DNA from: Longimicrobiales bacterium
GTDB lineage: Bacteria > Gemmatimonadota > Gemmatimonadetes > Longimicrobiales > Gaopeijiaceae
Length of the DNA stretch: 64,000 bases
Reading direction: 5' to 3'
NCBI GenBank assembly: GCA_041690395.1
Contig: JAWLHJ010000003.1
Coordinates: 480,001-544,000 of the forward strand
The notes under the pieces were generated by a model. It was not told the DNA's origin, ran no database searches, and saw nothing but the letters and a program-made list of their open reading frames with translations. This document shows, in pieces, positions 4,977-39,576 of the stretch. The translations under genes and the position numbers were made by a program. Positions within the stretch are counted from its first letter, which is position 1. Every line of letters begins with the position of its first letter.

Positions 4977-6013
4977 GTGTACCGGACCCCCGATCCTTCG
5001 GTCACCCGTCCGATGACCCTCGCGCCCAGGCCGGCCGCGGCGGCGGCGTCGAGCACCTCGCCGGCGTCGCCCTCGCGGGCCACGGCGATCATGCCGACGC
5101 CCATGTTGAAGACGCGGTCCATCTCGTCACGGGACACCTTCCCCGCCTCCTGGAGCGTCCGGAAGACGGCCGGGACCTCCCAGGAGCTCCGGTCCACGAC
5201 CGCGCCGAGCCCCTCGGGGAGCACGCGCGGCAGGTTGCCGGGAATGCCGCCGCCGGTGATGTGGGCGAGCCCCCGCACCCGGCCGGCCTCGAGCAGCGGC
5301 CAGAGGAGCGGGAGGTAGCTCCTGTGCACGGCGAGTAGCTCGTCGGCCACGGAGCGCCCCGTGCCCGGGAGCTCGTCGTCGACGCCGAGTCCCATGACCT
5401 CGAACACGATCTTCCGGGCGAGCGTGTATCCATTCGTGTGCAGCCCCGAGGCGTCGATGCCCACCAGAGCGTCTCCCTCACGGATGGCCGAGCCGTCGAG
5501 GATGCGGCCGTGCTCCACGACGCCCACGATGAAGCCCGCCAGATCGTATTCGTCCGCCGCGTAGAAGTCGGGCATCTGGGCCGTCTCGCCGCCCAGGAGC
5601 GCACACCGGTTCTCCTTGCACGCCGTCGCCACGCCGTGCACCACGTCGTGCACCACCGTCTCGTCCATCTCACCCGTGGCGAGGTAGTCGAGGAAGAAGA
5701 GCGGCTTCGCACCCTGCACCAGGATGTCGTTGACGCAGTGGTTCACCAGGCACTGACCCACGGTGTCGTGGCGGCCGGCCAGGAAGGCCACCTTGAGCTT
5801 CGTGCCGACGCCGTCCGCGCTCGACACCAGAACCGGCGCCTCCACGTCGTCCGGAACCTGGTAGAGACCGCCGAAGGCCCCGAGCTCGGAGAGCGTGAAT
5901 CGGTCGCGGGTCGAGGCCACCAGGGCCTTCAGCCGATCCTTGGTGCGCTCGGCGGCGTCCAGATCGACACCGGCGTCGCGGTAGCTCAGTCCCTCACGCG
6001 GCCCTTCGGTCAT
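4973..6013 (-). CDS. purM: Phosphoribosylformylglycinamidine cyclo-ligase (AIR synthetase)
   Basis: YRDAGVD, DGVGTK, LFFLDY, GGETAQMP, SGLHTNGY, HITGGG, FNMGVG. Confidence 0.97.
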   Translation of the reverse strand: MTEGPREGLSYRDAGVDLDAAERTKDRLKALVASTRDRFTLSELGAFGGLYQVPDDVEAPVLVSSADGVGTKLKVAFLAGRHDTVGQCLVNHCVNDILVQGAKPLFFLDYLATGEMDETVVHDVVHGVATACKENRCALLGGETAQMPDFYAADEYDLAGFIVGVVEHGRILDGSAIREGDALVGIDASGLHTNGYTLARKIVFEVMGLGVDDELPGTGRSVADELLAVHRSYLPLLWPLLEAGRVRGLAHITGGGIPGNLPRVLPEGLGAVVDRSSWEVPAVFRTLQEAGKVSRDEMDRVFNMGVGMIAVAREGDAGEVLDAAAAAGLGARVIGRVTEGSGVRYT

Positions 6014-6933
6014 CAGACGGCCTCCACCCGGGTCTCGAACGCGGTGATCTCGCGGAACTCGGCGACGCGCCGGCGCACGTCCTCGGCCGACAGGTCCACG
6101 AGCCGGTTCACCGAGAAGCTCTCCACCGCGAACGAGCCCAGCGCGGACCCGTGCACCATGGCGAGTCTGAGATCGTGCGGATCGAGGCTCCCGGCCGCGG
6201 CCAGGTAGCCCATGAATCCGCCCGCGAAGGAGTCTCCCGCGCCGGTCGGGTCGAAGACCTCCTCGAGCGGGTATCCCGGAACGAAGAAGAGCCAGTCATC
6301 GGCGAAGAGGATCGCGCCGTGCTCACCCTTCTTCACGACCACGACCTCGGGGCCGCGGTTCTGCACCCACCGCGCCGCCTTGAGAATGTTCGGCTCGTCG
6401 GCGAGCTGGCGGACCTCCTCGTCGTTGACGATCAGGATCCGCACGCGCCCCAGGAGCGAGAGCAGCGAGTCGCGCGCGCCGTCGATCCAGAAGTTCATGG
6501 TGTCGCAGGCGACCACGTCGGGGCTCGCGACCTGGTCGAGCACGTCGTGCTGAAGCGCCGGATCGATGTTTCCGAGGAAGACGTACTTCGACTCGCGGAA
6601 GGCGTCGGGGATCTCGGGCTGGAAGTCCGCGAACACCCCGAGCTTCGTCTCGAGCGTGTCACGGGAGTTCAGGTCGAAGTGGTACTTCCCGGCCCAGAAG
6701 AAGCTCTCGCCGTCGACCTTCTGGATCCCGGTGAGGTCGGCGCCCCGCTTCTCGAGGAAGCCCAGCTCGTCCATGGGATAGTCGTTCCCCACGACGCCCA
6801 CCATCTGGACCGGCTTGAAAAGCGTGGCGGCCGCGGAGAAGTACACGGCCGAGCCTCCGATGACCCGGTCTGCCTTGCCGAACGGCGTTTCCACGGAATC
6901 GAGCGCTACGCTACCTACACAGAGAATCGACAT
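6013..6933 (-). CDS. PfkB-family carbohydrate/nucleoside kinase
   Basis: GSVALD, GGSAVY, KKGEHGA, DPTGAGDSFAGG. Confidence 0.9.
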   Translation of the reverse strand: MSILCVGSVALDSVETPFGKADRVIGGSAVYFSAAATLFKPVQMVGVVGNDYPMDELGFLEKRGADLTGIQKVDGESFFWAGKYHFDLNSRDTLETKLGVFADFQPEIPDAFRESKYVFLGNIDPALQHDVLDQVASPDVVACDTMNFWIDGARDSLLSLLGRVRILIVNDEEVRQLADEPNILKAARWVQNRGPEVVVVKKGEHGAILFADDWLFFVPGYPLEEVFDPTGAGDSFAGGFMGYLAAAGSLDPHDLRLAMVHGSALGSFAVESFSVNRLVDLSAEDVRRRVAEFREITAFETRVEAV

Positions 6934-25419: not shown

Positions 25420-27849
25420 TCAGCCGGGGGTTCCGACCCGCTCGGCCAACGGCCGGTACATGAGCCCGTAGAACATCTCCAGGTAGCGCCGCGGCTCGTC
25501 CCGGTCGAGCGAGGAGATGTATCTCCAGAAGCCGTAGATGCGCGACAGCTCCAGCAGGCGGGATGCGTACAACGGCCAGTTGTAGCGCTCCGCCACGCGC
25601 GCGACGCCCGCCCGCGCGATCTCCATCCAGGCGTCTTGGTCGCCCCCGAACCGACCCATGACCTCGGCCATCCGCTCGGTGCTCTCGGGCCAGGCCGTGG
25701 GGTCGATGTGGAAGCCGCTCACCCCGTCCTCCACGATCTCCTCCGGCCCACCGAAGCGGGTGGCGAACACCGGCAGCCCCGAGCTCATCGCCTCGATCAC
25801 GGTCAGCCCGAACGCCTCGAACAGTGCCGGCTGCACGAACGCGCCCCGGCTGTCGGCCACCACCCGGTAGAACTCTCCCACCCGGCTCTTGTCCGTCTGC
25901 ATCTCGATCCAGCGGACGTCGTCGTCCAGTCCGAGCTCGTCCATGAGGTGATGGACCCTCTCGATCTGGCGGCGCTCGTCCACGTCCGAGGAGCGGTCCG
26001 CATCGATCCACCCTCCGACGAGGAGCAGGTTGGCGCGCTCCCGGAGCTCCTCCGAGCGTCCGTACGCCTCGAGGAGCCCCGCCACGTTCTTGATCTCGTC
26101 GAGGCGCGACATCGCGAACAGGATCGGGCGAGCGGGGTGCGTGAAGCGCCCGCGCGACCGGTCGTCGGGGTCGCCGAAGACCATAGCGCGGACCTCCTCG
26201 GTGAGCTCCGGAATGCGGCGCTCCTCCTCCCAGAACGGCCCGAAGACGTCGGGGTTCGCACCCGGCGACACGATGTTGAACTTCGGGTCGAAGCAGTCGA
26301 TGCCCGAGACCACCCGGTAGAGCCCGGGAAGGGTGAACGACCCGTAGCTCTCGTACTGCCCGACGCTCGTGTCCGTCCCGGCGATCTCCTGGTACGTGCT
26401 CGTGATGATGAAATCGGCGGTATTCATCGAGATCAGATCGGCCGTGAGCTGGCATGCGAAGTGGTGATCCTCCTCGTGCTCCTCCCAGAGGAGATCGGCG
26501 TCCCTGTACTTCGTCTTCTCGAGGGCGTGCGCGATGTTGCACTGGGTCACGCCCAGGCGGCGCGTCATGATGCTCGCCACCAGGTTTCCGTCCGAGTAAT
26601 TGCCGATGATCATGTCCGGCCGCTGGCCGAGCTCGGCCAGCAGCTCGCGCTCGGCGTCGACCGCGTAACGCTCCAGGTAGGGCCACACCTCGAAGCGGGA
26701 GATCCAGGGGCGCACCACCCCTCCGTCGGGGTCGCGGAACGGCACGCGCAGGATGCACGCATTCTCGGTCCCGAAGATCGGCTCGAGACGCTGGTCGCAC
26801 GTGGTGCCGTCGGCCTCCGGAATCAGCCTCGTCAGGACGACGATGCGCGGCTCGACGTCGATCCCCTGCTCGTGGAGCGTCTCCCTCATGGCTCGCTCGA
26901 GCGCGCGCACCTGGTCGAGGATGTAGACGACCTGCCCGCCGGTGTCCGGCTTCCCGAGAACGTCCGACTGACCGAAGTATCCGTGCGGCGACAGGATCGC
27001 GATGGAGGTGATCATCGGGATGCGTGCCAGGAAGTCGGCCAGGTGCACGGGGTCGGGCGCCTCGAGGAGGTCCAGAAGCAGCTCCATGGTCTCGCGCGTC
27101 CGCTCGGCCGTGCGCCCCCACCCGGGCTCGAAGCCGAGCCGCCGGAGGTCGGCCATCCACCTCGGCCGGTCGACTTCTCCCTCTTCATCGGCCAGCAGGT
27201 CGACCGCCCGCCGCAGCGCCGCGCGGAGCGCATCGGCCGAGTCGATTCCTTCCGAGAGCATGAGTGGCTGATCGCCCAGATGGTGCACACGGAGGAAGTC
27301 GACCAGCCGGGCCGTGCCGTTCCGTCCGTCGCGCTCTCCGGTCGGGGCGAGCCGGGTCCGGCGCTCCTCGAACAGGCCCACGGACAGGTAGCGGTTCAGG
27401 TGCTCCACACCGCGACCGATGGAACGAGCCTGGGTGAGGCGGGGGAAGCCACGCTCGAACGGCTCGAGGTCCACCTCGACGACGAAGCGGTCCTCGGCGC
27501 CCTCGCCCGTCACCAGCCGCTCCTTGACGTCCAGGAACTCCGCGACCGTGACCTCGGCGCAGCCGAGATCCTCCGCGCTCACCCGGACGTAACACCAGCT
27601 CGCGACCCGCTCCCGGAGCGCCAAGTACAACACGCCGTCCGTGACGACCACTTCCTGGATGCGCTCGATGAGCTCGTCGAGCGGGGGGGCGTCGAGGTCC
27701 CGCCACGCTTCGGTGGCCCGAAACGCGTCGTACTCGTGCCGGACGTCGACACCGGTCAGGAAGGGACGGGATTTGGCGCGAAGCCTCCGCAGCAGGACGT
27801 ACAGCGGTTCCCGGTGTCGGGCCCGGAGGTCGGCCAGCACATCGGTCAT
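25420..27849 (-). CDS. Sucrose synthase (GT4)
   Basis: 809 aa; SIGRGVEHLNR, SPHGYFGQ, PDTGGQVVYILDQVRALE, GNYSDGNL, HALEKTKY, STYQEIAG, EAFGLTVIEAM. Confidence 0.95.
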   Translation of the reverse strand: MTDVLADLRARHREPLYVLLRRLRAKSRPFLTGVDVRHEYDAFRATEAWRDLDAPPLDELIERIQEVVVTDGVLYLALRERVASWCYVRVSAEDLGCAEVTVAEFLDVKERLVTGEGAEDRFVVEVDLEPFERGFPRLTQARSIGRGVEHLNRYLSVGLFEERRTRLAPTGERDGRNGTARLVDFLRVHHLGDQPLMLSEGIDSADALRAALRRAVDLLADEEGEVDRPRWMADLRRLGFEPGWGRTAERTRETMELLLDLLEAPDPVHLADFLARIPMITSIAILSPHGYFGQSDVLGKPDTGGQVVYILDQVRALERAMRETLHEQGIDVEPRIVVLTRLIPEADGTTCDQRLEPIFGTENACILRVPFRDPDGGVVRPWISRFEVWPYLERYAVDAERELLAELGQRPDMIIGNYSDGNLVASIMTRRLGVTQCNIAHALEKTKYRDADLLWEEHEEDHHFACQLTADLISMNTADFIITSTYQEIAGTDTSVGQYESYGSFTLPGLYRVVSGIDCFDPKFNIVSPGANPDVFGPFWEEERRIPELTEEVRAMVFGDPDDRSRGRFTHPARPILFAMSRLDEIKNVAGLLEAYGRSEELRERANLLLVGGWIDADRSSDVDERRQIERVHHLMDELGLDDDVRWIEMQTDKSRVGEFYRVVADSRGAFVQPALFEAFGLTVIEAMSSGLPVFATRFGGPEEIVEDGVSGFHIDPTAWPESTERMAEVMGRFGGDQDAWMEIARAGVARVAERYNWPLYASRLLELSRIYGFWRYISSLDRDEPRRYLEMFYGLMYRPLAERVGTPG

Positions 27850-30800
27850 GCGTCGGGCTCCGGGTCGGCGCGGATATCACCGAAGAAGTCGTAGTGTTCG
27901 ATTCCTTCCAGGACGCCCCACGCGTGGCTCCCGTCCGCGAAATACACGCGGTGACTGTCGCGCAGATCCTCCAGCTCGTCGGTGTGGTTCCCGACCACGA
28001 CGCCGAGCGTCTCACCCGAGAGCATGTCCGCGTCGTTGCCCGAGTCACCTGCCACGAGCAGCCGCTCGGGCGGCAGATCCCACTTGAAGCCGAGGAAGCG
28101 AATGGCCATCCCGGGGGAGGCCCTGACTGGAATCACGTCGAGGAAGGAGCCGTGATCGAGGATGGTCGTCGCGCGCAGCCCTTCCTTGCGCAGCCTACGC
28201 CGCACGTCCGACGCGCCAGGACCGCCCGGGTCGCTCACGTACCGAAGACGGTACGGCGTTTGAGCTTCATCCGTGCCGAGGCGTAGGCCGTCGACCTGGG
28301 AGAGGAAGTCGCGAATGCGGTCGCGCTCCCAGCGGTGGTGGATCTGGCGCTCCCACGAGCGGTCCCGGATGAGCCGCTCACCGTAGTGGAGCTGCGTGCC
28401 CGTCCCGGTGATCAGGACGTCGGGCACCGGGATACCCAGATCCTCGATCATCTCGAGCGCGAGGTCGAGGGTTCGGCCGGTGGCGATCCCGAAGCCCACG
28501 TTCGGTCCCGCCGCGACGAGGCGCTCGATCAGGGCGCGGAGCCCCTCGTCGTCCCCCGTGAGCGTGTCGTCGATGTCGGTCACCACGATGCGGTCGAGCA
28601 CGGGCATGCGGCCGGCGCCGGCGTGCCGTCCGCTCGGCCGCCCTCCGCTCACGACCTGCTCCAGCTCCTCCAGGTAGCGCTCCGCGTGGCTCGACCAGGA
28701 GAAGTGCTGGTGCACTCGCTCCACGCCCCGCGCCGACCAACGCCTCCAGCGGTCCCGGTCCGCGAGCGCGGCTTCGAGGCCGCGGGCGATCTCCCGGGGC
28801 TCGGTCGCGTCCACCAGCAGGCCGTTCTCGCAGGCCGCGAGAATGTCCCGGGGCCCGCCGTCGTCCGTGGCGACGATCGGCACGCCGCTCGCGGCCGCCT
28901 CGAGCAGGGTCAACCCGAACGGCTCGGTGAACGCCGGGTTGACGAAGACGCCGCCGCTGGCGGCCGCCATCCGGTAGAGATCCGGCACGTCGGCCGAGCC
29001 GTGCGCCTTCGGGTAGGCGACCGAGCCGTGCAGGTCGTACCGGTCGATCAGGAGGAGCATCCTCGTGAGCACCGAGCGTGAGTTCGAAGGCATCTTGCGG
29101 ATGTCTTCCCGGTTCCCGGCGACCAGGACGAGGTTGGCCCACTTCCGGAGCTTTCCACTCCGACCGAACGCCTCGATGAGGCCCTCGAAGTTCTTCCGCT
29201 CGTCCGGGCGGGCGAGGGCGAGGATCATGGGCTTTCCGGGATCCCTGAGGAAGCGCGCCAGGTCGTCGGCGAGAGGGGGCGGCGTCCAGTCGTCGGCGGC
29301 TGTCGAGAAGCGGTCCAGGTCCACCCCCGGCGGGATCACGCGCATACCGTCGGGATGATAGTTGTCGTAGAGCTGATACTGCTCCTCCACCTCCTGATGC
29401 GTGCTCGCGATCACGACCGACGCCGTCTCGAGCGCTCGCTCCTCCGCCTCGATCCGGAGCGGGAAGTTGTAGCGCTCGTCCAGCTTGGCGGCGTCCTTCC
29501 CCGCGGAGAGGAGGCGGGCCTTCTTCACCCGGCCGAGCGAGTGTCCGGTGAAGAAGAACGGCACGCCGAGCAGCTGCGCCAGGCGCCCGCCGACGTAGCC
29601 CGCGTCCGCGTAGTGGCCGTGGACCAGGTCCGGAATCCGGCCGGTGCGACGTACGTGCCGGATCAGCCCGTCGAGCAGGCTGTCCAGATGCGGCCAGAGT
29701 GACTCCTTCCGCAGATATCGCCTCGGGCCGAACGGAAGCCGCACGATACGCGCACCCAGCGAGAGGGGCTCCTCCGGCACGGCATACTGGTCGTCCACGC
29801 GCTTGTCGAAGATCTGACGGGTCACTACCTCGACCCGCTCTACGGACGGATGCTCCGCGAGAGCCCGCGCCTCGTCGAGGACGTACGTGACCTGTCCGCC
29901 GGTGTCGGGATCGCGCCCGAGCTCGATATCGGTACCCCGCACCAGCCCGTGGATCGTGAGCGACAGCACGTGCAAACCGCCCCGTCTTCCTCTGGACGTC
30001 GCGCGCGCTTCGTCGCCCTCGCCACGGCCGGGCCCGCTCTCCCCTTCGGACCACGCCCGGAGGTGCCGCTCGTAGAGGGCGGCATCGCTCGTCGTCGCAC
30101 CGCGGACACCGCAGATGTCCGACGCGAAGCGCGTGGCCCGGTCGATGGTCATGCGGGGGCTCCACCCGCCCAGGATGCCCATACCCAACACGGAGCTGAA
30201 CGCGTCGCCGGCGCCGACGGTGTCGACGAGCTGCGGCACGACCGGCTCCTCTCCGACGACCGTCTCCGCTCCACGCGTGACGCAGACCGCGCCCTCGGGC
30301 CCGCGCGTGATCACCACTCGGTGGATGTCATGAGCTTCGGCGAGCTCTCTCGCGGCCTCCTCGCATGCCGCCAATGTGCTCGTGTCCCGACCGGAAACCT
30401 CGGCGAGCTCGGCTTCGGCCAGCTTCAGCCAGCGGGCTCCGCTCATGGCGGCCCGCACGTTCTCCGGCGTGGCCCAGGGCTCGCGCAGGTTCAGGTCGAC
30501 CAGCGCGGGCGCTCCGGACCGGAGGAGCTCTTCGAGCGCCCGCCGGCTCTCTTCGGAGCGCATGGCGAGCGTGCCGTGATAGATGAAGCGGACCGCACCC
30601 GGAAGGGTCTCTGCCGCCGCGCCGGCGTCGATGAAGTCCCACGCCTGATCGGGGTCGATCTCGTACCGGTTCTCACCGTCGCCCATCTCGACGCGAACCC
30701 GCCCCGTCGGGCGATCCTGGAGGGTCTGCACTCCGTTCCTGGAGAGTCCCCACTCCTCCATGCGCTGGAGGATGTCGTGACCGGCCTTGTCGAAGCCGAC

Positions 30801-31004
30801 CGCGCTGACGAACGCGGGGTCCGCACCGAATCCGCGCAGGTGCCACGCGACGTTGAACGGAGCGCCGCCGAGCACCCGCGTCCCGTCCGGAAACTCGTCG
30901 AACAGGACCTCGCCGAAGACGACGGGACGCCCCCTCGCGCGCGGGATCCCGTGGCCGCCGATCGCCGGCGCTCTCTCGAATGGCTTTCCCTTCATGGCTA
31001 TCAT
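27846..31004 (-). CDS. Fusion protein: PfkB (fructokinase-like) + sucrose-phosphate synthase + HAD-IIB phosphatase domain
   Basis: Single frame with FGEVLFD, GGAPFNVA, DTVGAGDAF; then GRDPDTGGQVTYV, HGHYADAG, TGHSLG, ARPDERKN, EPFGLTLLEA; then TDIDDTL, ATGR, AGDSGND. Start uncertain (30995, 31004 or 31031). Confidence 0.9.
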   Translation of the reverse strand: MIAMKGKPFERAPAIGGHGIPRARGRPVVFGEVLFDEFPDGTRVLGGAPFNVAWHLRGFGADPAFVSAVGFDKAGHDILQRMEEWGLSRNGVQTLQDRPTGRVRVEMGDGENRYEIDPDQAWDFIDAGAAAETLPGAVRFIYHGTLAMRSEESRRALEELLRSGAPALVDLNLREPWATPENVRAAMSGARWLKLAEAELAEVSGRDTSTLAACEEAARELAEAHDIHRVVITRGPEGAVCVTRGAETVVGEEPVVPQLVDTVGAGDAFSSVLGMGILGGWSPRMTIDRATRFASDICGVRGATTSDAALYERHLRAWSEGESGPGRGEGDEARATSRGRRGGLHVLSLTIHGLVRGTDIELGRDPDTGGQVTYVLDEARALAEHPSVERVEVVTRQIFDKRVDDQYAVPEEPLSLGARIVRLPFGPRRYLRKESLWPHLDSLLDGLIRHVRRTGRIPDLVHGHYADAGYVGGRLAQLLGVPFFFTGHSLGRVKKARLLSAGKDAAKLDERYNFPLRIEAEERALETASVVIASTHQEVEEQYQLYDNYHPDGMRVIPPGVDLDRFSTAADDWTPPPLADDLARFLRDPGKPMILALARPDERKNFEGLIEAFGRSGKLRKWANLVLVAGNREDIRKMPSNSRSVLTRMLLLIDRYDLHGSVAYPKAHGSADVPDLYRMAAASGGVFVNPAFTEPFGLTLLEAAASGVPIVATDDGGPRDILAACENGLLVDATEPREIARGLEAALADRDRWRRWSARGVERVHQHFSWSSHAERYLEELEQVVSGGRPSGRHAGAGRMPVLDRIVVTDIDDTLTGDDEGLRALIERLVAAGPNVGFGIATGRTLDLALEMIEDLGIPVPDVLITGTGTQLHYGERLIRDRSWERQIHHRWERDRIRDFLSQVDGLRLGTDEAQTPYRLRYVSDPGGPGASDVRRRLRKEGLRATTILDHGSFLDVIPVRASPGMAIRFLGFKWDLPPERLLVAGDSGNDADMLSGETLGVVVGNHTDELEDLRDSHRVYFADGSHAWGVLEGIEHYDFFGDIRADPEPDA

Positions 31005-31049
31005 GGTAGGCCGTTTCGCCGGAAAGTTCACCCCACGAGCGTACCGCGG

Positions 31050-31856
31050 ATGACGCGAGAGCCCATCATGCTCGCCTCGGATCTCGACGGGACCCTGATC
31101 CCGACCGACGTCGACGAGGCGCGCGCCGAGGAGATCCGGACCTTCCGGTCCGCCATGAGCGAGCGCGGCCTGAAGCTCGCGTACGTGACCGGTCGGGGGC
31201 GCGATCTGGCGCTGAAGGGCATCCAGCGTGTCGGACTACCCCTCCCCGAAGTCCTCGTGTGCGACGTGGGGACGAGCGTCTGGGTGCGCCGGGGCGGTCA
31301 CGACGCATGGTTCGTCGACGAGGTCTATCAGGAGCGCATGCGGGAAGCGCTCGGCGGCGTGGCCCGGGCGGACATCGTCGGGGGCATCGGCGCGCTCGAG
31401 GGGCTCGAGCTGCAGGAGCCCGGGAAGCAGACCGACTTCAAGATCAGCTATTACGTCGCGCCCGACCGCCTCGACGCTCTTCGCGACGGGGTCGGCGAGC
31501 GCCTCGCCCGCTTCCCGGTCCCACCCAAGGCCGTCTGGAGCCACGATCCCTACAGCGGTCGCATGCTCCTGGACGTCCTGCCGAGAAACGTGGCCAAGCA
31601 TGTCGCGCTCGGGCACCTGCGGGAGCGGCACGGCCACGCGCTGGACGAGATCGTCTACGCGGGTGACTCGGGCAACGACTTCGACGCGCTCCTCAGCGGC
31701 CACCCCGCGATCGTCGTCGCGAACGCTCCCGAGGCCCTGAAGCGCCAGTTGCGGGAGGAGGCGCTGGCGGCCGGGACGCTCGACCGCATGTACTTCGCGG
31801 AACGCCCGTTCGCCGGGGGCGTGATGGAGGGGCTACGCCACTTCGGCGCGCTGTGA
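31050..31856 (+). CDS. HAD-IIB hydrolase, sucrose-phosphate phosphatase-like
   Basis: C-terminal part of ORF 29850..31856; SDLDGTL, YVTGR, CDVGT, FKISYY, LDVLP, AGDSGND, VVANA. Confidence 0.88.
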   Translation: MTREPIMLASDLDGTLIPTDVDEARAEEIRTFRSAMSERGLKLAYVTGRGRDLALKGIQRVGLPLPEVLVCDVGTSVWVRRGGHDAWFVDEVYQERMREALGGVARADIVGGIGALEGLELQEPGKQTDFKISYYVAPDRLDALRDGVGERLARFPVPPKAVWSHDPYSGRMLLDVLPRNVAKHVALGHLRERHGHALDEIVYAGDSGNDFDALLSGHPAIVVANAPEALKRQLREEALAAGTLDRMYFAERPFAGGVMEGLRHFGAL

Positions 31857-31870
31857 GCTGGCCCGCCCGG

Positions 31871-32299
31871 TCAACGACCCGAGATGTAGGACATCAGATG
31901 CCGGTTGGCCTCCTCGCTCTCCGAGCGCAGCCGATTCACCACGTCCCCGATCGAGACGATGCCGACCAACCGGCCATCGGACAGGATCGGCAGGTGACGC
32001 ACTCGGTGGTTCGTCATGAGGTTCATGACGTGATCGAGGTCGTCGTCGGGCTCGCTCGTCACGATCTCGCGCGTCATCACCGCGCGCACCCGGATCGCGG
32101 CCAACGCCTCGGGCCCCCGCGCCGTGAGCTTGAGGATGTCCCGCTCCGAGACGATGCCCACGGGTCGGTCGTCCTCCACCACGACCGTCGCACCGATGTT
32201 GTGGCGGACGAGCGTCCGAACCACGTCGAGCACCGTTCGGTCGGGGTCGATCGTGACCACGTTCGAGCCCTTCGACCGCAGAACGTCCGAGATCCTCAT
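31871..32299 (-). CDS. Tandem CBS-domain protein
   Basis: MRISDVLRSKG, GIVSERD, RVRHLPI, GIVSIGDVV; GGAGG upstream of ATG 32299. Confidence 0.92.
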   Translation of the reverse strand: MRISDVLRSKGSNVVTIDPDRTVLDVVRTLVRHNIGATVVVEDDRPVGIVSERDILKLTARGPEALAAIRVRAVMTREIVTSEPDDDLDHVMNLMTNHRVRHLPILSDGRLVGIVSIGDVVNRLRSESEEANRHLMSYISGR

Positions 32300-32398
32300 G
32301 CTCAGATCCTCCCTCCGGGGTCCCCGGGGGTCCGCGCGCGGGGCGCGGCCCCACGAGGTCAAGGTATCGGTCGGTCGAGGGGCGCGAAACCGCGCCGG

Positions 32399-32562
32399 GG
32401 TACCTTTCGCGCGAGATGCGAAAGTCGTTCGAAAGTCGAAACACTTTCGCGAGGATCGTCGTGGTGAACCCGCGGCCGGATCCCAGCGCCACACGGAGCT
32501 TTCCGGCGTCTACGCCGTCCTGGGGGTGACTGCGCGGGTCGTTCGAAAGTCGAACGATCTCC
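32399..32562 (-). repeat. Dispersed intergenic 164-bp element, copy B (inverted relative to copy A)
   Basis: Reverse complement aligns to 14192..14355; contains GTCGTTCGAAAGTCGAA twice (near 32424 and 32538). Confidence 0.85.
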
Positions 32563-32608
32563 ATCACACCGAGACGCGCCCCCTTCCACCTCGAGACCCG
32601 CCTCCCGC

Positions 32609-33832
32609 CTAGGCCGACACCCGGTCCCGCCCGCCCCGCTTGGCCCGGTACAGCGCCTTGTCCGCCTTGGCGAGCACGACCGCCGGTGCGGCGTCGGCCG
32701 CCGCCTTCGAGTCCGCCGCCCCGACCGACACGGTCACCGACAGCGTGCGATCGGCCCGCGCGGGCTTCTTCGCACCCCCACTTCGCCTGGCCTTGCCGGC
32801 CTCCTTCCGCGCCGGCCGACTCCAGCGGCGTAGGGAGAAGCGGGCCGACGCCACGGAGGCGCGTACCGACTCCAGGTACGGTATGGCCTCCTGTCGCTCG
32901 AGCCCGCGGTAGAGGAGCGTGAACTCCTCGCCTCCGTACCGGTAGGCACGCCCGCCGGCCGGGGCCTTGGCGAGTCGGCTCGCCACGAGCCGGAGTACCT
33001 GGTCGCCGACGTCGTGGCCGTGCTTGTCGTTGAACTTCTTGAAGTGGTCGACGTCGACCATCGCGAGGGTGTAGGTCCCGCTGAGCCCGTCGAGATCGCG
33101 CATCAGCGAGCGGCGTCCGGGGAGACCGGTCAGCTCGTCCCGGTACGCCATGGCGTAGGACGTCTCGAGCACGGCGAGTCCGAGCGTCAGGGACGCCGCC
33201 ATGCGGAGCAGCGACGCCGTGGAGCCTTCCGCGCCGGGCAAGGCCGACCCGACCACGAGCGCGAAGCTCCACAACGCAGCGCGCTCCACAGGTCCCCTGC
33301 GCCGGTAGGCCGCCGCGATGGCCAGCAGGAGTCCGAGGGCGACCACCGCCAGCGCCTGCGGCGAGGCATTCAGCCAGGGGAAGGCGTCCGGTGGCTCCGC
33401 CGAGGTCGGAGCGAACGCGGTGAGCGCGGGAATTCCCCGGGACAGACCGATGGTCCAGGCCGCGGCGAACCCCAGAGCGCCGAGGAGGTGACCCACGCCC
33501 ACGACCGACGTCACGCCCCGGTCACGTGCCACCGCGCCCAGCCCCAGGAGCGCCGCCATCGCGACGCCGAGCGCGGGCCGGTCGGGCTCCGCCACCATCC
33601 CCGCCCGCGCCACCGCCTCGACGACGGCGAGCGCCGCCACGAGCGCGAGCACGCGGCTCCGGTGGAACGCGACGGCGAGCCCGGCCGCGACCACGTAGGC
33701 GATCGGACCGTACCAGCCGACGATCGTCGCGGCGAGGTCTTCCCGACCCGGCGGGGCGTAGAAGAGAACGGCGATCGCGAGGCCCGCTACCACCCCACCG
33801 GGGAAGAGCCAGCGAAGGAGGGTACGTATCAT
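32609..33832 (-). CDS. Membrane-bound diguanylate cyclase (GGDEF domain)
   Basis: Multiple TM segments, then RDELTGL, DVDHFKKFNDKHGHDVGD, RYGGEEF, ADKALYRAK. Confidence 0.92.
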   Translation of the reverse strand: MIRTLLRWLFPGGVVAGLAIAVLFYAPPGREDLAATIVGWYGPIAYVVAAGLAVAFHRSRVLALVAALAVVEAVARAGMVAEPDRPALGVAMAALLGLGAVARDRGVTSVVGVGHLLGALGFAAAWTIGLSRGIPALTAFAPTSAEPPDAFPWLNASPQALAVVALGLLLAIAAAYRRRGPVERAALWSFALVVGSALPGAEGSTASLLRMAASLTLGLAVLETSYAMAYRDELTGLPGRRSLMRDLDGLSGTYTLAMVDVDHFKKFNDKHGHDVGDQVLRLVASRLAKAPAGGRAYRYGGEEFTLLYRGLERQEAIPYLESVRASVASARFSLRRWSRPARKEAGKARRSGGAKKPARADRTLSVTVSVGAADSKAAADAAPAVVLAKADKALYRAKRGGRDRVSA

Positions 33833-33871
33833 CCTCGGGAGGGGCGTGGGGGAGGAAGGCGTGGCGGGAGG

Positions 33872-33899
33872 AAGGTAGGCTCGACGGCCCACCCGTCAA
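33872..33899 (-). promoter_or_regulatory. Putative sigma70 promoter for the GGDEF gene
   Basis: Minus strand TTGACG-N16-TACCTT about 40 nt upstream of ATG 33832. Confidence 0.5.
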
Positions 33900-33962
33900 C
33901 GCGCATACTCATATCGGTGGCGTGTCCGCCACCCGCTCCGCACATCCCCCGGAAACGACGCT

Positions 33963-34601
33963 TTGCGCGACCTCCTCCTCTTCTTCGTTTCGCTCTTTTC
34001 GATCGTGAACCCGCTGTCGGTCATCCCGACCTTCATGGGGCTCACGCACGACGCCACGAAGACCGAGCTGCGCCGCATCACGCGACAGGCTTCCTTCTCG
34101 GTCTTCCTGATTCTGATGGCGTCCTACACCGCCGGCGAGGCCGTGCTGGGCTTCTTCTCGATCAGCGTGGCTTCCCTGCGGATCGCCGGAGGAGTCCTGA
34201 TCTTCGGCATGGCGTGGTCGATGCTCCAGGCCACCGTCAGCCGGGCCAAGCAGACCCGGGAGGAGGCCGCCGAGGCGCCCGAGCGGCAGAGTATCGCCGT
34301 CGTGCCGCTGGCCATGCCGCTCCTCGCCGGACCGGGATCGATCAGCCTCATGATCATCGTCGCGGGACGGATGGACGGGATCTCCAACCACGTCATCGTC
34401 CTCCTCGGAACCGCCCTCCTCGCGCTCGTGACGTGGGTGGTCCTGCTCGCGGCCGGCCCCATCGCCCGCGCGCTGGGCCGGACCGGGCTCAACGTCGCGA
34501 CGCGGTTCATGGGACTCATCCTCGCCGCGATCGCCGTCGAGTTCATCACCTCCGGGCTGCTGGACATCTTCCCGGGATGGGCGGCCGGCACGGAACCCTG
34601 A
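33963..34601 (+). CDS. MarC-family inner membrane protein
   Basis: [42 protein letters not shown] start. Confidence 0.92.
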
Positions 34602-34659
34602 CCGTCGCCGAGGGGTTCGTAAAGCGGCCCCCGGACCGACCCTCCAGCCTCCACGATCC

Positions 34660-35616
34660 ATGATCATTCGCCGCCCCCCGCACATCCCGTCCTCGGAGAT
34701 CACGCCCGAGAGCGTGTACGTGAACCGCCGGACGTTCATCAAGGCGGCCGCGCTGGGCGGTGCCGGGCTGGCCATCGGTCCGGACGCGCTGGGCGCGCTG
34801 GACACGTCCGATGCTCAGGAGGTCCCCGCGCGCTTCAGGGACATGCGCTCGGAGCTCGACGAGGAGCTCAACTCGTACCGGGACATCACGACCTACAACA
34901 ACTTCTACGAGTTCGGTACCGGGAAGGACGACCCCCACAAGAACTCCGGGGATTTCCGGCCGCGCCCGTGGACCGTGAAGATCGACGGGCACGTCGACAA
35001 GCCGGGCGACTACCAGCTCGAGGACTTCCTGGCGCCTCACACCATGGAGGACCGGGTCTACCGGCTACGCTGCGTCGAGGCCTGGTCGATGGTGATCCCG
35101 TGGTACGGGTTTCCGCTCGCCGACCTGGTGAGGCGCGTCGAGCCCACGGGGAACGCGCGCTATCTCGAGTTCACGACGCTCGTGCGGCCTTCAGAGATGC
35201 CCGGCCAGCGCACCGGCGTGCTCGACTGGCCGTACGTCGAAGGGCTGCGCATCGACGAAGCCATGCATCCGCTGACGCTGCTCGCGACCGGCGTCTACGG
35301 CATGGACCTCCCGAACCAGAACGGCGCGCCCCTCCGACTGGTCGTCCCGTGGAAGTACGGCTTCAAGGGCATCAAGTCGATCGTGCGCATCCGGTTCGTC
35401 GAGGAGATGCCGCTCAACACATGGCAGCGGCAGACCCCGAGCGAGTACGGCTTCTACGCGAACGTGAATCCGAACGTCGATCATCCGCGCTGGAGCCAGG
35501 CGCGGGAACGGCGGCTCCCGGGGCTCTTCAAGAACCACGAGACGCTGATGTTCAACGGGTACACGGAAGAGGTGCAGCACCTCTACGCCGGCATGGATCT
35601 CCGTCGCTGGTACTGA
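34660..35616 (+). CDS. msrP: Protein-methionine-sulfoxide reductase, catalytic subunit
   Basis: SEITPE, Tat motif [52 protein letters not shown]. Confidence 0.97.
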
Positions 35617-35641
35617 GCCGGGCCGCGCGTCGGATCCCCCG

Positions 35642-36262
35642 ATGACGACGAAAGCGACCGTCCGCAGCCTGAAGGTCGTCCTCTGGATCGCCGCTCTGGC
35701 CCCCGCGGCCTGGCTCGTGCGCGGCGTCATGCAGGGCGAGCTCGGCGCCAACCCCATCGAGACGCTGACGCACACCACGGGCATGACCGCCCTGGTGCTC
35801 CTGCTGGTGACACTCGCCGTGTCTCCGGTGCGCAAGCTCTCCGGGTGGAACCCGGTGATCCGCCTGCGGCGCCCCCTCGGGCTGTTCGCGTTTTTCTACG
35901 CGGTGTGCCACTTCTCCATCTGGTTTGTGTTCGACATGGTCTTCAACGTCGGGTGGATGCTCGAGGACATCGCCGAACGCCCCTACATCACCGTGGGGAT
36001 GGCGGCTTTGCTGCTCCTCATCCCGCTGGCGGTGACTTCCACCAGGGGTTGGATCAGGCGACTCGGGAAGCGGTGGGCCAAGCTGCACAGGCTGGTATAC
36101 GTCGCGACCGGCCTGGGCGTCCTGCACTACTTCTGGCTGGTCAAGTCGGACTACCGGCTGCCCTCGTTCCTGGCCGTCTGCCTCCTGATCCTGCTGATCG
36201 CCCGGGCGCCGATCGCGCGTCTCACCGCACCGAGGAAGCCGGTGGAGCGCTCGACCGGCTGA
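35642..36262 (+). CDS. msrQ: Protein-methionine-sulfoxide reductase, heme-binding membrane subunit
   Basis: LGANP, RRPLGLFAFFYA..H, RPYITVG, PLAVTS, WAKLHRLVY; follows msrP. Confidence 0.95.
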   Translation: MTTKATVRSLKVVLWIAALAPAAWLVRGVMQGELGANPIETLTHTTGMTALVLLLVTLAVSPVRKLSGWNPVIRLRRPLGLFAFFYAVCHFSIWFVFDMVFNVGWMLEDIAERPYITVGMAALLLLIPLAVTSTRGWIRRLGKRWAKLHRLVYVATGLGVLHYFWLVKSDYRLPSFLAVCLLILLIARAPIARLTAPRKPVERSTG

Positions 36263-37132: not shown

Positions 37133-37207
37133 GGTCGCAGGCTTCACGTTTGAAAGGATGGCGTTCGACTCCGCGCTGATAGATGGTTGCCGGGTGCGGC
37201 CAAGTCG

Positions 37208-37999
37208 ATGATCGATCTGTTAAAGATAAGCAAAATATACACTTCGGGCTCACCCCCCGCCCTGGACGACGTCACGCTCTCCGTCGAGGAGGGAGAGACG
37301 CTGGCGCTTCTCGGATCGTCGGGGTCGGGCAAGACGACCGCGCTGAAGCTGGTGAATCGCCTCGAGGACCCCACCTCGGGCACCGTTCGCGTCGCCGGGC
37401 GCGACGTGTCCGGCGTGGACGTCCACGAGCTCCGCCGCTCCATCGGATACGTCTTCCAGGGGGTCGGCCTCTTCCCCCACCTGACCGTCGGCGAGAACGT
37501 GGGCGTGGTGCCCCGGCTGCAGGGTTGGGACGCGACCCGGATCCGGGCGCGAGCGACCGAGCTGCTCGACCTCGTCGGGCTCCCGGCCGACCGGTTCCGC
37601 GACCGGTATCCGGACCAACTCTCCGGCGGTCAGGCGCAACGGGTCGGCGTGGCGCGGGCCCTCGCCGCGGACCCGGAGATCCTCCTGATGGACGAGCCCT
37701 TCGGCGCCCTCGACGCGGTCACGCGGGTCCGCCTCCAGGACGAGCTCGTCGACCTCAAGGCGAGGCTCGGCCGCACCATCGTCTTCGTCACCCACGACCT
37801 GGTCGAGGCGCTGAAGCTCGGCGACCGGGTGGCGATCCTCCACCGCGGCGAGCTCCACCAGGTGGGCACCGGGCGGGAGCTGTACCGGAACCCGGAGACG
37901 CCGTTCGTGCGGGACCTGCTCAGCCAGCTCGAGAGCCAGATGCGCGAGGCGGAGCGGCTCCTGGGAGCGGACGCGCCCGCCCCCGGAGGCGATGCATGA
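37208..37999 (+). CDS. Osmoprotectant-type ABC transporter ATP-binding protein
   Basis: GSSGSGKTT, IGYVFQ..GLFPH, LSGGQAQRVGVARALAADP, LMDEPFGALD, FVTHD; no CBS domains. Confidence 0.93.
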   Translation: MIDLLKISKIYTSGSPPALDDVTLSVEEGETLALLGSSGSGKTTALKLVNRLEDPTSGTVRVAGRDVSGVDVHELRRSIGYVFQGVGLFPHLTVGENVGVVPRLQGWDATRIRARATELLDLVGLPADRFRDRYPDQLSGGQAQRVGVARALAADPEILLMDEPFGALDAVTRVRLQDELVDLKARLGRTIVFVTHDLVEALKLGDRVAILHRGELHQVGTGRELYRNPETPFVRDLLSQLESQMREAERLLGADAPAPGGDA

Positions 38000-39576
38000 G
38001 CGCGCTCGTCGAGGCGTTCGCGACACGAGCGCCGGAGGTGTGGCTGCGAACGCTCGAGCATCTCATGCTCACCGGCATCTCGACGGTGGCCGCGGTGCTG
38101 GTCGGGGTCCCCGTGGGGGTGCTCGCGTTCTTCCGACCCCGCCTGCGATCGGCGCTCCTCTCCGGGGTCGGCATCCTGCAGACCGTCCCGAGCCTGGCCA
38201 TGCTCGCGCTCCTCCTCGTCGCGTTCGGGCGCATCGGGGTCGCGCCGGCGCTCGCGGCGCTCACCCTGTACGCGCTCCTGCCGGTGGTCCGGAACACCCT
38301 CGTGGGGCTCGAGGGCGTGGACGACGACGTCGGGGCGGCCGCGCGCGGGCTCGGCATGACCCCGTCCCAGGAGTTGCTCCGCGTCCGGCTCCCCCTCGCC
38401 CTCCCCGTCCTCGCCGCCGGCGTCAGAACCGCCGCCGTGATCGGGGTCGGCATCGCCACGCTGTCGGCCTTCATCGGCGCCGGCGGGCTGGGTCAGTTCA
38501 TCAACCGCGGTCTGGCGCTCTCCGACACGGGCCTCATCCTGCTCGGCGCCGTCCCGGCCGGCATCCTCGCGCTCATCGTCGACGGATCGATCGCCGGCGT
38601 GGAGTGGGCGGCCGACGCGCGGCGCCACCGTGACGCCCGGACCGCGGGTCGCCGACTCCTCCGCATGGCGGTCGCCACGGCTCCGCTCGTGCTTCTGGTG
38701 GTGCCGTCCGTCCTGCTCGCCCTCGGCAGCCGCGGGGGTCCGACCTCCGGTGGCGGGCGTGTCACCATCTGCACGAAGAACTTCACGGAGCAGCTCGTGC
38801 TGGGCGAGCTCATGGCCCAGGTGATCGAGGCCCGCACCGACCTGTCGGTCGACCGCCGGTTCAACATGGGCGGCACGGTCATCTGTCACCGAGCGCTGGT
38901 GGCGGGTGAGGTGGACGTGTATCCCGAGTACACGGGGACGGCGCTCACGGCCATACTGGGAATGGAGCCCGGCCCGGACGACGGCCCCGACCAGGTCATG
39001 CAGGAGGTCCGAACCCGCTACGCCCGCGACTTCGACGTTCGGTGGCTCGAGCCGTTCGGCTTCGACAACACCTACGTGCTGCTCGCAGATCCGGACGTCG
39101 CGGATTCGCTCGACTGGTCGCGGGCGTCGGACCTCGCGGACGCGGCGTCCGGGCTGTCGGTCGGGTTCACCTCCGAGTTCGCGGAGCGCGCGGACGGGTA
39201 CCCCGGCTTCGTCGAGCACTACGGCTTCTCGTTCGGCGCCGAGCGCGACCTCGACCCGGGCATCCTCTACCAGGCCGTCGCCGGCGGGGAGGTCGACGTG
39301 GTGTTCGGCTTCGCCACGGACGGACGGATCGACAGCTACGGGCTGGAAGTCCTGGCCGACGACCGGGCCTTCTTCCCCCCGTACGAAGCCGCACCGCTGG
39401 CGCGAATGGACGCCCTCGAAGCGAACCCCGGGCTCGGGCCGGCCCTCTCCGCGCTGGCCGGCGAGCTCCCGGACTCCACCATGCGCCGCCTCAACCGGGA
39501 AGCCGACGAGGGAACGGGCAACGTCGCCGAGATCGTGCGGCGGTTCGTCGAGGAGCGCGGGCTCGGCGGGTCCTGA
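37996..39576 (+). CDS. Fused permease / substrate-binding protein of betaine/choline-type ABC importer
   Basis: QTVPSLAML, LYALLP, IGAGGLG; then KNFTEQ, YPEYTGT, FDNTY, EFAERADG, ATDG, FFPPY; ATGA overlap with the ATPase. Confidence 0.9.
   Translation: MSALVEAFATRAPEVWLRTLEHLMLTGISTVAAVLVGVPVGVLAFFRPRLRSALLSGVGILQTVPSLAMLALLLVAFGRIGVAPALAALTLYALLPVVRNTLVGLEGVDDDVGAAARGLGMTPSQELLRVRLPLALPVLAAGVRTAAVIGVGIATLSAFIGAGGLGQFINRGLALSDTGLILLGAVPAGILALIVDGSIAGVEWAADARRHRDARTAGRRLLRMAVATAPLVLLVVPSVLLALGSRGGPTSGGGRVTICTKNFTEQLVLGELMAQVIEARTDLSVDRRFNMGGTVICHRALVAGEVDVYPEYTGTALTAILGMEPGPDDGPDQVMQEVRTRYARDFDVRWLEPFGFDNTYVLLADPDVADSLDWSRASDLADAASGLSVGFTSEFAERADGYPGFVEHYGFSFGAERDLDPGILYQAVAGGEVDVVFGFATDGRIDSYGLEVLADDRAFFPPYEAAPLARMDALEANPGLGPALSALAGELPDSTMRRLNREADEGTGNVAEIVRRFVEERGLGGS

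Follow-up and report, generated by a model that had tools for sequence, protein, structure and literature searches.

The window, the whole stretch of 64,000 nucleotides that was analysed, carries a fusion gene (P0001) at 27846..30995 (-), read as a single frame of 1049 aa without internal stop. This bears out an earlier note on this DNA, which had described one uninterrupted frame of about 1050 aa. The start codon was placed at the ATG at 30995, and alternative in-frame starts lie upstream (ATG 31004 and GTG 31031). The protein comprises a PfkB kinase domain, likely a fructokinase (residues 23-315; 30051..30929), a linker rich in Gly, Arg and Glu (residues 316-340; 29976..30050; pLDDT below 50 for 317-338), a predicted sucrose-phosphate synthase (SPS) GT-B domain (residues 341-780; 28656..29975) and an SPP-like HAD domain (residues 802-1037; 27885..28592), all encoded on the (-) strand. 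In the profile search PF00294 covered residues 36-303, TIGR02472 341-778 and TIGR02471 803-1037. The kinase motifs pointed out in the earlier note, GGAPFNVA and DTVGAGD with its catalytic Asp, were found at residues 43-50 and 258-264, and the intact DxDxT motif of the HAD domain at 807-811 (DIDDT). The ATGA overlap with the sucrose synthase (SuSy) gene, also mentioned there, was located at 27846-27849; this second gene (P0002, 809 aa) occupies 25420..27849 (-). On the other side, a divergent intergenic region of 54 nt (30996..31049) separates the fusion from a stand-alone SPP-like gene (P0003, 268 aa; 31050..31856, (+)). No sigma-70 consensus site was found in these 54 nt, and a scan for promoters and terminators gave nothing. 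P0003 lies within the coordinates of the earlier note, yet it was absent from its description, as was Pro961 of the fusion.

The kinase-SPS-HAD fusion is genuine. PfkB, GT and S6PP domains were present in 120 of 120 homolog clusters among the matches listed, the same frame is open in three genomes of the same genus and an independent contig from run X4, spanning 28685-31549, bridges the linker in frame, its sole change being an in-frame deletion of 27 nt in the linker. An assembly or frameshift artefact was thus excluded, including the stop or frameshift in the linker for which the earlier note had proposed a check. A public protein collection also contains the exact P0001 sequence. Sequencing runs contained only small fractions of the sequence words, so that no habitat can be assigned, and contigs from RNA runs are no proof of transcription.

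The architecture is recurrent and not unique. It appeared in 3 of 401 genomes sampled from the phylum, 150 long proteins match the kinase part, about 150 sequence clusters carry the fusion and it is common to many environmental bacteria. The earlier note had held that the finding would be refuted if the architecture were common and already described; it is recurrent, but no published description of a PfkB-SPS-HAD fusion was found in the literature searched, although one may exist in subscription papers or in Table S1 of PMC9971976. Nor did the literature search give any paper on sucrose metabolism in the host lineage, in line with the earlier note. Split operons of kinase and SPS genes occur in the same clade, at Gemmatimonadota loci L005, L023, L029, L045 and L098 and also in Planctomycetota/Verrucomicrobiota, and the fusion is a variant of a known pathway in which two neighbouring genes have been joined. 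In the split operons of the clade the kinase stop overlaps the SPS start, without read-through. In the tree two of the split genes fall inside groups of fused ones, and a single origin without reversals was discarded, since a clade of fused genes only is rejected by the AU test (p 0.0185). Overlapping neighbours within one operon were the likely starting point of the fusion. The span from Trp315 to Val343 has 27 residues here and in one close relative, against 14-19 in the other 119 of the 121 fusions; it contains no Met, in agreement with the Gly/Arg linker of about 25 aa without internal Met reported before. Given the flexibility of the linker, little channelling between the two halves would be expected. 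Nor was a conserved internal restart of SPS found, no start codon being shared over 17 fused locus rows.

The kinase domain matched PF00294 with 123 bits (threshold 25.8) and retains DxNxR, GGAPxNV, the GGxxxN sugar site and the GAGD anion hole with the catalytic Asp. In the alignment, Asp264, Gly261 and Gly263 are found in 121/121 fusions, and Gly43, Gly44, Asn48, Asp167, Asn169 and Glu196 in 120/120 rows with letters. N/S-x-x-E is the metal/phosphate motif of PfkB kinases; at position 193 of the corresponding KxNxxE motif there is Ala here, with Asn in 102 and Ser in 16 of the 121 fusions, Glu196 being retained. Ala193 is confined to two fusions (2/121), those of the present species and its closest relative. 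The closest solved structure, 2QHP, is labelled fructokinase (fold match, rmsd 2.5), and the neighbouring SPS and SuSy also favour fructose as the likely substrate. The glycosyltransferase domain scored 660.7 bits with TIGR02472 (bacterial SPS), above the cut-off of 576. His485 (GHSLG), Arg596, Lys601, Glu691 (EPFG) and Glu699 are invariant (121/121); His485 and Glu691 align with H. orenii SPS and, from the motif, would be equivalent to His158 and Glu331 of TeSPS. This domain is the predicted maker of sucrose-6-phosphate from NDP-glucose and fructose-6-phosphate. All three domains are under purifying selection, with dN/dS in three pairwise comparisons of 0.11-0.18 for the kinase, 0.07-0.11 for the glycosyltransferase and 0.08-0.15 for the HAD tail, the tail being as constrained as the kinase.

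In the tail, Asp807, Asp809 and Thr811 of motif I are present in 121/121 fusions, as are Thr839 (motif II), Arg841 and Asp988, with Asp984 in 120/121; P0001 also has GDSGND, the motif III/IV Asp pair. The motif III Lys is missing from 120/121, and P0001 has Pro961 (codon 28113..28115, (-)) at the position where Synechocystis SPP carries this Lys. The sole Lys-bearing fusion, P0120, matches P0020 at 98-100% identity as far as about residue 700 and at only 36-62% thereafter, a drop that marks it as a chimera. GDSGND is deleted from five fusions, which measure 985-994 aa, and several of these are also without a motif I Asp. The Gln/Lys/Ser triad of the SPP cap is said, in work attributed to Fieulaine in 2005, to have a sugar-binding role; position by position, the P0001 tail has Gln912/Arg916/Arg918, position 912 being variable, Arg916 present in 120/121 and Arg918 in 118/121 fusions. 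A review (PMC9971976) describes the motif III Lys as stabilising the phospho-Asp intermediate. The fused tail is likely a weak or inactive phosphatase retained for binding or structure.

The stand-alone P0003 has DxDxT, Thr47, the cap residues Gln122/Lys131/Ser133, Lys183 and GDSGND; in 30/30 aligned sequences its HAD motifs are all invariant, as are the Lys of motif III and the triad of the cap, and these residues were also aligned with 1S2O. PF05116 gave 160 bits, while the curated SPP cut-offs were not reached (TIGR01485, 91 vs 183.65; TIGR01482, 79 vs 107.15), so P0003 is likely SPP-like by motif and context and stays outside formal family membership at both cut-offs. At 16/16 fused loci there was a separate SPP in divergent orientation that carries the Lys. 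The Lys is kept in 45 of 46 SPP-labelled rows, the exception being the tail of an SPS whose contig is cut short. Over 70 SPS loci, a complete HAD occurred 14 times without and never with an SPP, and a degenerate one 46 times with and 10 times without; the phylogenetically independent pairs behind this pattern number only 2, and it lacks significance. When SPS-HAD (341-1040) and the separate SPP were modelled as a complex, the score was 0.00, which is evidence in neither direction.

SuSy was assigned by TIGR02470 (1049.4, cut-off 810.4), by the N-terminal SUS domains PF24861 and PF24862 and by its match to the SuSy structure 4RBN (E 1.5e-267). At the positions of nucleotide preference, plant enzymes have Gln/Asn (UDP) and that of N. 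europaea has Arg/Ala (ADP); P0002 has Gln651/Val657 and is half plant-like. An amylosucrase is encoded on another contig, near a sugar-type ABC transporter. It was found in 6 of 41 genomes, all six among the 8 SuSy-positive ones. The genome, 98% complete, gave no match to OtsA, GH32 or GH100.

With a probability of about two in three, we propose that the four genes form a sucrose synthesis-and-recycling module. The fused protein would convert fructose into fructose-6-phosphate and this into sucrose-6-phosphate. As the tail has no catalytic Lys, free sucrose would come from the separate phosphatase of the adjoining divergent gene and probably not from the fused tail. Cleavage of sucrose by sucrose synthase and the remote amylosucrase would then yield fructose, to be recaptured by the fused kinase, along with NDP-glucose or glucan. 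Sucrose probably acts as a protectant against osmotic stress or desiccation and as a store of carbon tied to glycogen, buffering its supply. What was observed directly is which genes are present and co-occur, the fusion itself, the state of the motifs and the selection on the three domains; the activities are all inferred from this, as are the specificity for fructose, the nucleotide of the donor and the role in physiology. The module is supported by SPS and SuSy passing curated cut-offs, by the missing OtsA, GH32 and GH100 and by amylosucrase occurring only with SuSy. Against it count the kinase score far below the NCBIfam fructokinase cut-off (NF006957, 65 against 450), Ala193 and at least two other strong PfkB genes in the genome, together with a tail whose invariant motif I Asp, Thr839 and Asp988 and whose constraint exceed the needs of a dead domain, and whose Arg916/Arg918 could supply the missing charge. 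The non-significant pattern of complete HAD and SPP also counts against it, as does the lack of a canonical GalU or GlgC among the genes found as a source of the donor, for which the genome has three candidate glucose-1-phosphate nucleotidyltransferase-like genes (G000 C4:623354-624049, C6:119341-120039 and C7:36876-37475). The term "self-contained", applied to the cycle in the earlier note, is too strong, since the glucose donor must come from outside the cluster and an amylosucrase on another contig accompanies it.

It is improbable that storage comes first and osmoprotection second. Glucose would here reach glycogen without GlgC, from NDP-glucose through sucrose-6-phosphate to sucrose and then by amylosucrase or SuSy to glucan, with fructose as the recycled carrier, or else imported sucrose would be used. 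The genome encodes GlgA, GlgB and glucan phosphorylase and neither canonical GalU nor GlgC was found in it; GlgA is present in all 8 SuSy-positive genomes of the 41, GlgC and GalU in 1/24 cluster-bearing genomes each, and the location of amylosucrase near the transporter and its restriction to SuSy-positive genomes also fit, as does the amylosucrase route described for Synechococcus PCC 7002 (PMC11046441). However, GlgC is absent from 24/24 family genomes, cluster-bearing or not (GalU is present in 1/41 genomes), and nine genomes have GlgA without GlgC or SuSy, their glycogen synthase thus being independent of a SuSy route. For this reason SuSy as the required source of ADP-glucose in place of GlgC was downgraded, the missing GlgC and GalU being lineage background. 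Furthermore, amylosucrase was found in only 5/18 other cluster genomes, the first nucleotide-preference position of SuSy is a plant-like Gln, and GlgA fed by UDP-glucose without GlgC is known (PMC11046441).

Quite improbable is a trifunctional enzyme, in which Arg916/Arg918 or Arg841 would replace the lost Lys in an active tail and the separate SPP would be a back-up. The invariant motif residues, the strong purifying selection, a TIGR02471 score of 286.5 bits (cut-off 209.75), a good fold match to SPP 1S2O and the bifunctional SPS/SPP of Synechococcus elongatus PCC 7942, reported in PMC9971976, speak for it. The earlier note had drawn from the motifs one chain that could lead from fructose to sucrose, but an intact DxDxT is insufficient for an active tail, and this claim is made doubtful by the Lys missing from 120/121 fusions, the x/Arg/Arg triad, the five deletions of GDSGND and the complete SPP kept at 16/16 fused loci, when 0/14 complete-HAD loci with enough flank keep one. 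We regard as very unlikely its extended form, a re-wired tail where the cap Arg pair replaces the HAD Lys and a single chain takes fructose to sucrose in three steps, amylosucrase feeding glycogen in a lineage without canonical GlgC and GalU. Least credible of all is a functionally minor fusion, with a kinase weakened or regulatory here (Ala193) or SPS also made alone from an internal TTG or GTG: conservation is lowest in the kinase domain (mean majority frequency 71%, vs 80% and 77% for the others), in-frame TTG341 and GTG343 are preceded by a AGAGGAAG stretch in the window and split genes nest among fused ones, but kinase dN/dS is 0.11 against the closest relative, Asp264 and Glu196 are kept, and that relative has CTG/GTC at the matching codons, no start being conserved over the 17 rows.

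The closest known systems were compared on the basis of PMC9971976, PMC4390843 and PMC11046441. The Synechocystis sp. PCC 6803 type has a bidomain (GTD-PHD) SPS with a non-functional PHD and a separate SPP (PMC9971976, PMC4390843). The present locus likewise joins a GT4 synthase to a defective SPP-like HAD beside a separate SPP gene, but it adds an N-terminal PfkB, its defect lies in the motif III Lys and cap triad instead of the motif I Asp, and its host is non-photosynthetic (reaction-centre gene in 0/7 genus genomes). S. elongatus SPS/SPP shares the two domains and both motif I Asp, whereas here the motif III Lys is gone, a stand-alone SPP is always retained and a kinase domain is added. 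As in the spsA-sppA-frkA-amsA operon of Synechococcus sp. PCC 7002 (PMC11046441, PMC9971976), the genome has SPS, SPP, a likely fructokinase and amylosucrase, except that the kinase is fused to SPS, SPP is divergent, SuSy is in the operon and amylosucrase lies on another contig. Beside the GT alone and the GT plus phosphatase domain described in the reviews consulted, the fusion is a third SPS architecture, and with it sucrose metabolism reaches into Gemmatimonadota and myxobacteria; for producing sucrose-6-phosphate from fructose, a chain that naturally joins fructokinase and SPS could be of use. The Nitrosomonas-type proteobacterial sps-spp-frk-sus clusters (L092, L094, L060 and L061) group the four activities predicted here, but have a separate kinase gene after SPP, an SPS tail defective at other positions and a SuSy with Arg/Ala where P0002 has Gln/Val. 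The co-evolution of bidomain SPS with and without phosphatase activity is listed as an open question in PMC9971976, and a single clade with intact, Lys-less and motif-deleted tails and with fused and split kinases offers a natural series for it. The Gemmatimonadota split operons have the same order as the fused locus (SPP divergent, kinase, SPS, then SuSy) and differ from it in the overlap that replaces read-through; in the split operons of the clade the motif III Lys has already been lost (Pro or Ser).

The fusion gene (27846-30995, minus strand) is a single open frame of 1049 aa, and an identical protein is present in the public collection. PF00294 (PfkB) matched residues 36-303 of its product, P0001, TIGR02472 residues 341-778 (660.7 bits, cut-off 576) and TIGR02471 residues 803-1037 (286.5, cut-off 209.75). 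All the motifs that an earlier note had quoted for an uninterrupted frame of about 1050 aa were found in this translation; the linker contains no Met, as had been said, and the stop codon overlaps the ATG of the sucrose synthase gene (SuSy, 809 aa; TIGR02470 1049.4, cut-off 810.4) by ATGA, in agreement with the proposed coupling. The span 25420..31856 first assigned to the cluster held for the fusion and SuSy, and also includes the gene of an S6PP-family phosphatase of 268 aa (31050-31856, plus strand), divergent from the fusion and 54 nt from its start, which had gone unmentioned. Read mapping over the linker had been proposed as well, and a contig of sequencing run X4 covers 28685-31549; it shows 171 differences and a single in-frame deletion of 27 nt, located in the linker. 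The AlphaFold model of the fusion (mean pLDDT 84.6, pTM 0.69) displayed three confident domains, whose Foldseek counterparts were SPS 2R60, SPP 1S2O and fructokinase 2QHP, and both linkers were below 50. Since the GC3 of the cluster (0.87-0.92) is like that of its neighbours (0.88-0.92) and the surrounding gene order is common to three same-genus genomes, the cluster is no recent arrival in the genus. One member of the 90% cluster of P0001 bears the name Gemmatimonadota, presumably the phylum of the host. After the phosphatase, a stretch syntenic in the genus (31871-36262) encodes a CBS-domain protein and a membrane GGDEF protein; by family resemblance, it presumably also includes MarC-like and MsrPQ-like genes.

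With a probability of about 0.66, we infer every step of a route in which the N-terminal domain would convert fructose and ATP into F6P, the GT domain would combine F6P with NDP-glucose into sucrose-6P, the divergent SPP would free sucrose, and SuSy and amylosucrase would give back fructose. Fusion would fix the stoichiometry and hold the recycled fructose close to the synthase; a tunnel between both domains is disfavoured because the linker is disordered. The genome carrying the window (98% complete) gave no match for OtsA, GH32, GH100 or GalT and nothing above cut-off for GlgC or GalU. It carries PGI, four NTP-transferases, one being ManC, and a glycogen locus with GlgA, GlgB and glucan phosphorylase (L115:8856-15071, corresponding to C6:72855-79070 of this genome). 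In addition, an amylosucrase-family GH13 of 652 aa (L116:7752-9710, corresponding to C1:609751-611709, minus strand; E 8e-197 to solved amylosucrases) has the catalytic motifs and lies about 0.8 kb downstream of a sugar-type ABC transporter. Amylosucrase was found in 6 of 41 genomes, all within the eight having SuSy, and in 5 of 18 other cluster-bearing genomes, both counts including kin that are not independent. A storage-first route to glycogen is a rather unlikely alternative. GlgA is present in 8/8 SuSy genomes and in 17/41 relatives, with GlgC in 0 of those 17, and the genome and family of the glycogen locus lack a canonical GlgC and nearly lack GalU. However, nine further GlgA genomes have neither SuSy nor GlgC, so glycogen synthesis does not require the sucrose cluster. 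SuSy has Gln651 and Val657 where Arabidopsis has Gln and Asn and N. europaea has Arg and Ala, positions bearing on nucleotide preference according to PMC10465243. Finally, an osmoprotectant-type ABC transporter (window 37187-39576, plus strand; an ATPase and a fused permease/substrate-binding protein, ProV-/OsmF-like, below cut-offs) lies 5 kb from the cluster and adjoins it in two of three same-genus loci, a weak hint of osmotic stress. A search of 7 genus genomes found no photosynthetic reaction-centre gene.

The earlier note had placed kinase, synthase and phosphatase in one chain. The three domains and their motifs are there; what became doubtful is the tail as a working phosphatase, a role it probably does not have. 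The motif III Lys, which steadies the phospho-Asp intermediate (PMC9971976), is missing in 120 of 121 fusions, the column holding Pro in 96, Cys in 11, Leu in 6, Ser in 5, and Val, Ala and Lys in one each; Pro961 of P0001 aligns with this Lys of Synechocystis SPP. The cap triad Gln/Lys/Ser of SPPs is variable/Arg/Arg in the fusions. A divergent SPP stands beside 16/16 fused loci (of 101 loci, 13 had been set aside because they were repeats, belonged to the window or did not encode an SPS), whose tails lack the Lys in 14 cases and are cut or frameshifted at that position in 2. Of 46 SPP-labelled rows, 45 keep the Lys; the one without it is the tail of an SPS on a cut contig. In the comparison of 70 SPS loci (14 removed for short flanks, 3 for gaps), an SPP adjoined 0/14 complete-tail loci vs 46/56 degenerate-tail loci, a pattern with 2 independent pairs behind it and not significant. 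Because Asp807, Asp809, Thr839, Arg841 and Asp988 are kept in 121/121 tails and the tail is strongly constrained (dN/dS vs three relatives 0.08-0.15; kinase 0.11-0.18, GT 0.07-0.11), it may retain a residual or re-wired activity. A true trifunctional enzyme is an unlikely alternative. In the favoured reading, the tail would bind sucrose-6P or keep the fold, roles proposed for inactive PHDs (PMC9971976). Five fusions of 985-994 aa (P0211, P0216, P0219, P0220 and P0222) lost GDSGND and the C-terminal part, and some also a motif I Asp, keeping the cap and following helix; these tails appear to be natural pseudo-phosphatases. The Lys-bearing P0120 forms a single-member cluster, and its HAD tail is complete and canonical. 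It matches P0020 at 98-100% identity as far as about residue 700, beyond which it is nearest to gammaproteobacterial SPS, and is therefore a recombinant or a mis-assembly; if recombinant, it could be truly trifunctional.

The kinase and synthase domains seem intact. All 121 fusions keep Asp264 and the GxGD anion hole, all 120 rows with letters at the columns concerned keep GG43-44, Asn48, Asp167, Asn169 and Glu196, and SPS His485, Arg596, Lys601, Glu691 and Glu699 are invariant. T. elongatus SPS requires the His and Glu of these motifs (PMC7264703), to which those of P0001 would correspond on the basis of motif. Gene context and the labels of the best solved matches suggest fructose as the kinase substrate; the NCBIfam fructokinase model scored 65 vs a cut-off of 450. 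A weakened kinase, to which Ala193 would point (only in P0001 and its closest relative; Asn in 102 and Ser in 16 of 121), or separate translation of SPS, against which stands the lack of a conserved start codon at the junction over 17 fused locus rows, is very unlikely. A second PfkB-family kinase is encoded at window 6013-6933 (minus strand).

The fusion is real, recurrent and mechanistically conservative. A search with the kinase part scored 7993 candidates, of which 150 were long proteins, and PfkB, GT and S6PP domains occurred in 120/120 homologs listed (best 120 of 7960 matches). Among 41 related genomes, the fused frame was found in 4/7 from the genus. In two family members the genes for kinase and SPS are separate neighbours, and in another SPS lacks a kinase next to it. 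At L006:515-3699, a family locus without kinase gene, SPP diverges directly from SPS. A phylum sample of 401 genomes gave 3 fused and 2 split loci, a sixth match being a shorter GT only. The best 80 of at least 593 loci in the species-genome collection included 12 fused, by name seven Myxococcota-type, two Gemmatimonadota, one Vicinamibacterales, one delta proteobacterium and one bacterium. Four Planctomycetota loci (L040, L041, L048 and L081) have SPP within a 900-1000-aa open frame, possibly an other-domain fusion or merely a long GC-rich frame. NCBI and JGI names for these fusions cover one domain only. Literature searches outside subscription journals brought up no article describing a fusion of kinase and SPS or the synthesis of sucrose by Gemmatimonadota; the available parts of PMC9971976 and PMC4390843 describe only one- and two-domain SPS, and the fusion is likely undescribed in print.

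In the SPS tree, all 55 fused rows grouped with 8 split Gemmatimonadota-type rows in a single clade (support 1.0), whose sister clade, of Planctomycetota/Verrucomicrobiota, has Ser at the Lys position. In the kinase+SPS tree of 35 rows, 23 fused and two split rows (L027, L097) formed a 99% clade, with five split rows outside it and three changes required; a fused-only clade was rejected (AU p 0.0185). One fusion followed by two fissions is the simplest reading, and several fusions are conceivable. Because Pro already stands in place of this Lys in the split relatives, the Lys was likely lost before the fusion arose, which would likely never have been a three-step enzyme. Split relatives also share the gene order of fused loci, and four of them show an 11-nt overlap of the SPS ATG with the kinase stop, from which a small indel would suffice to fuse both genes.
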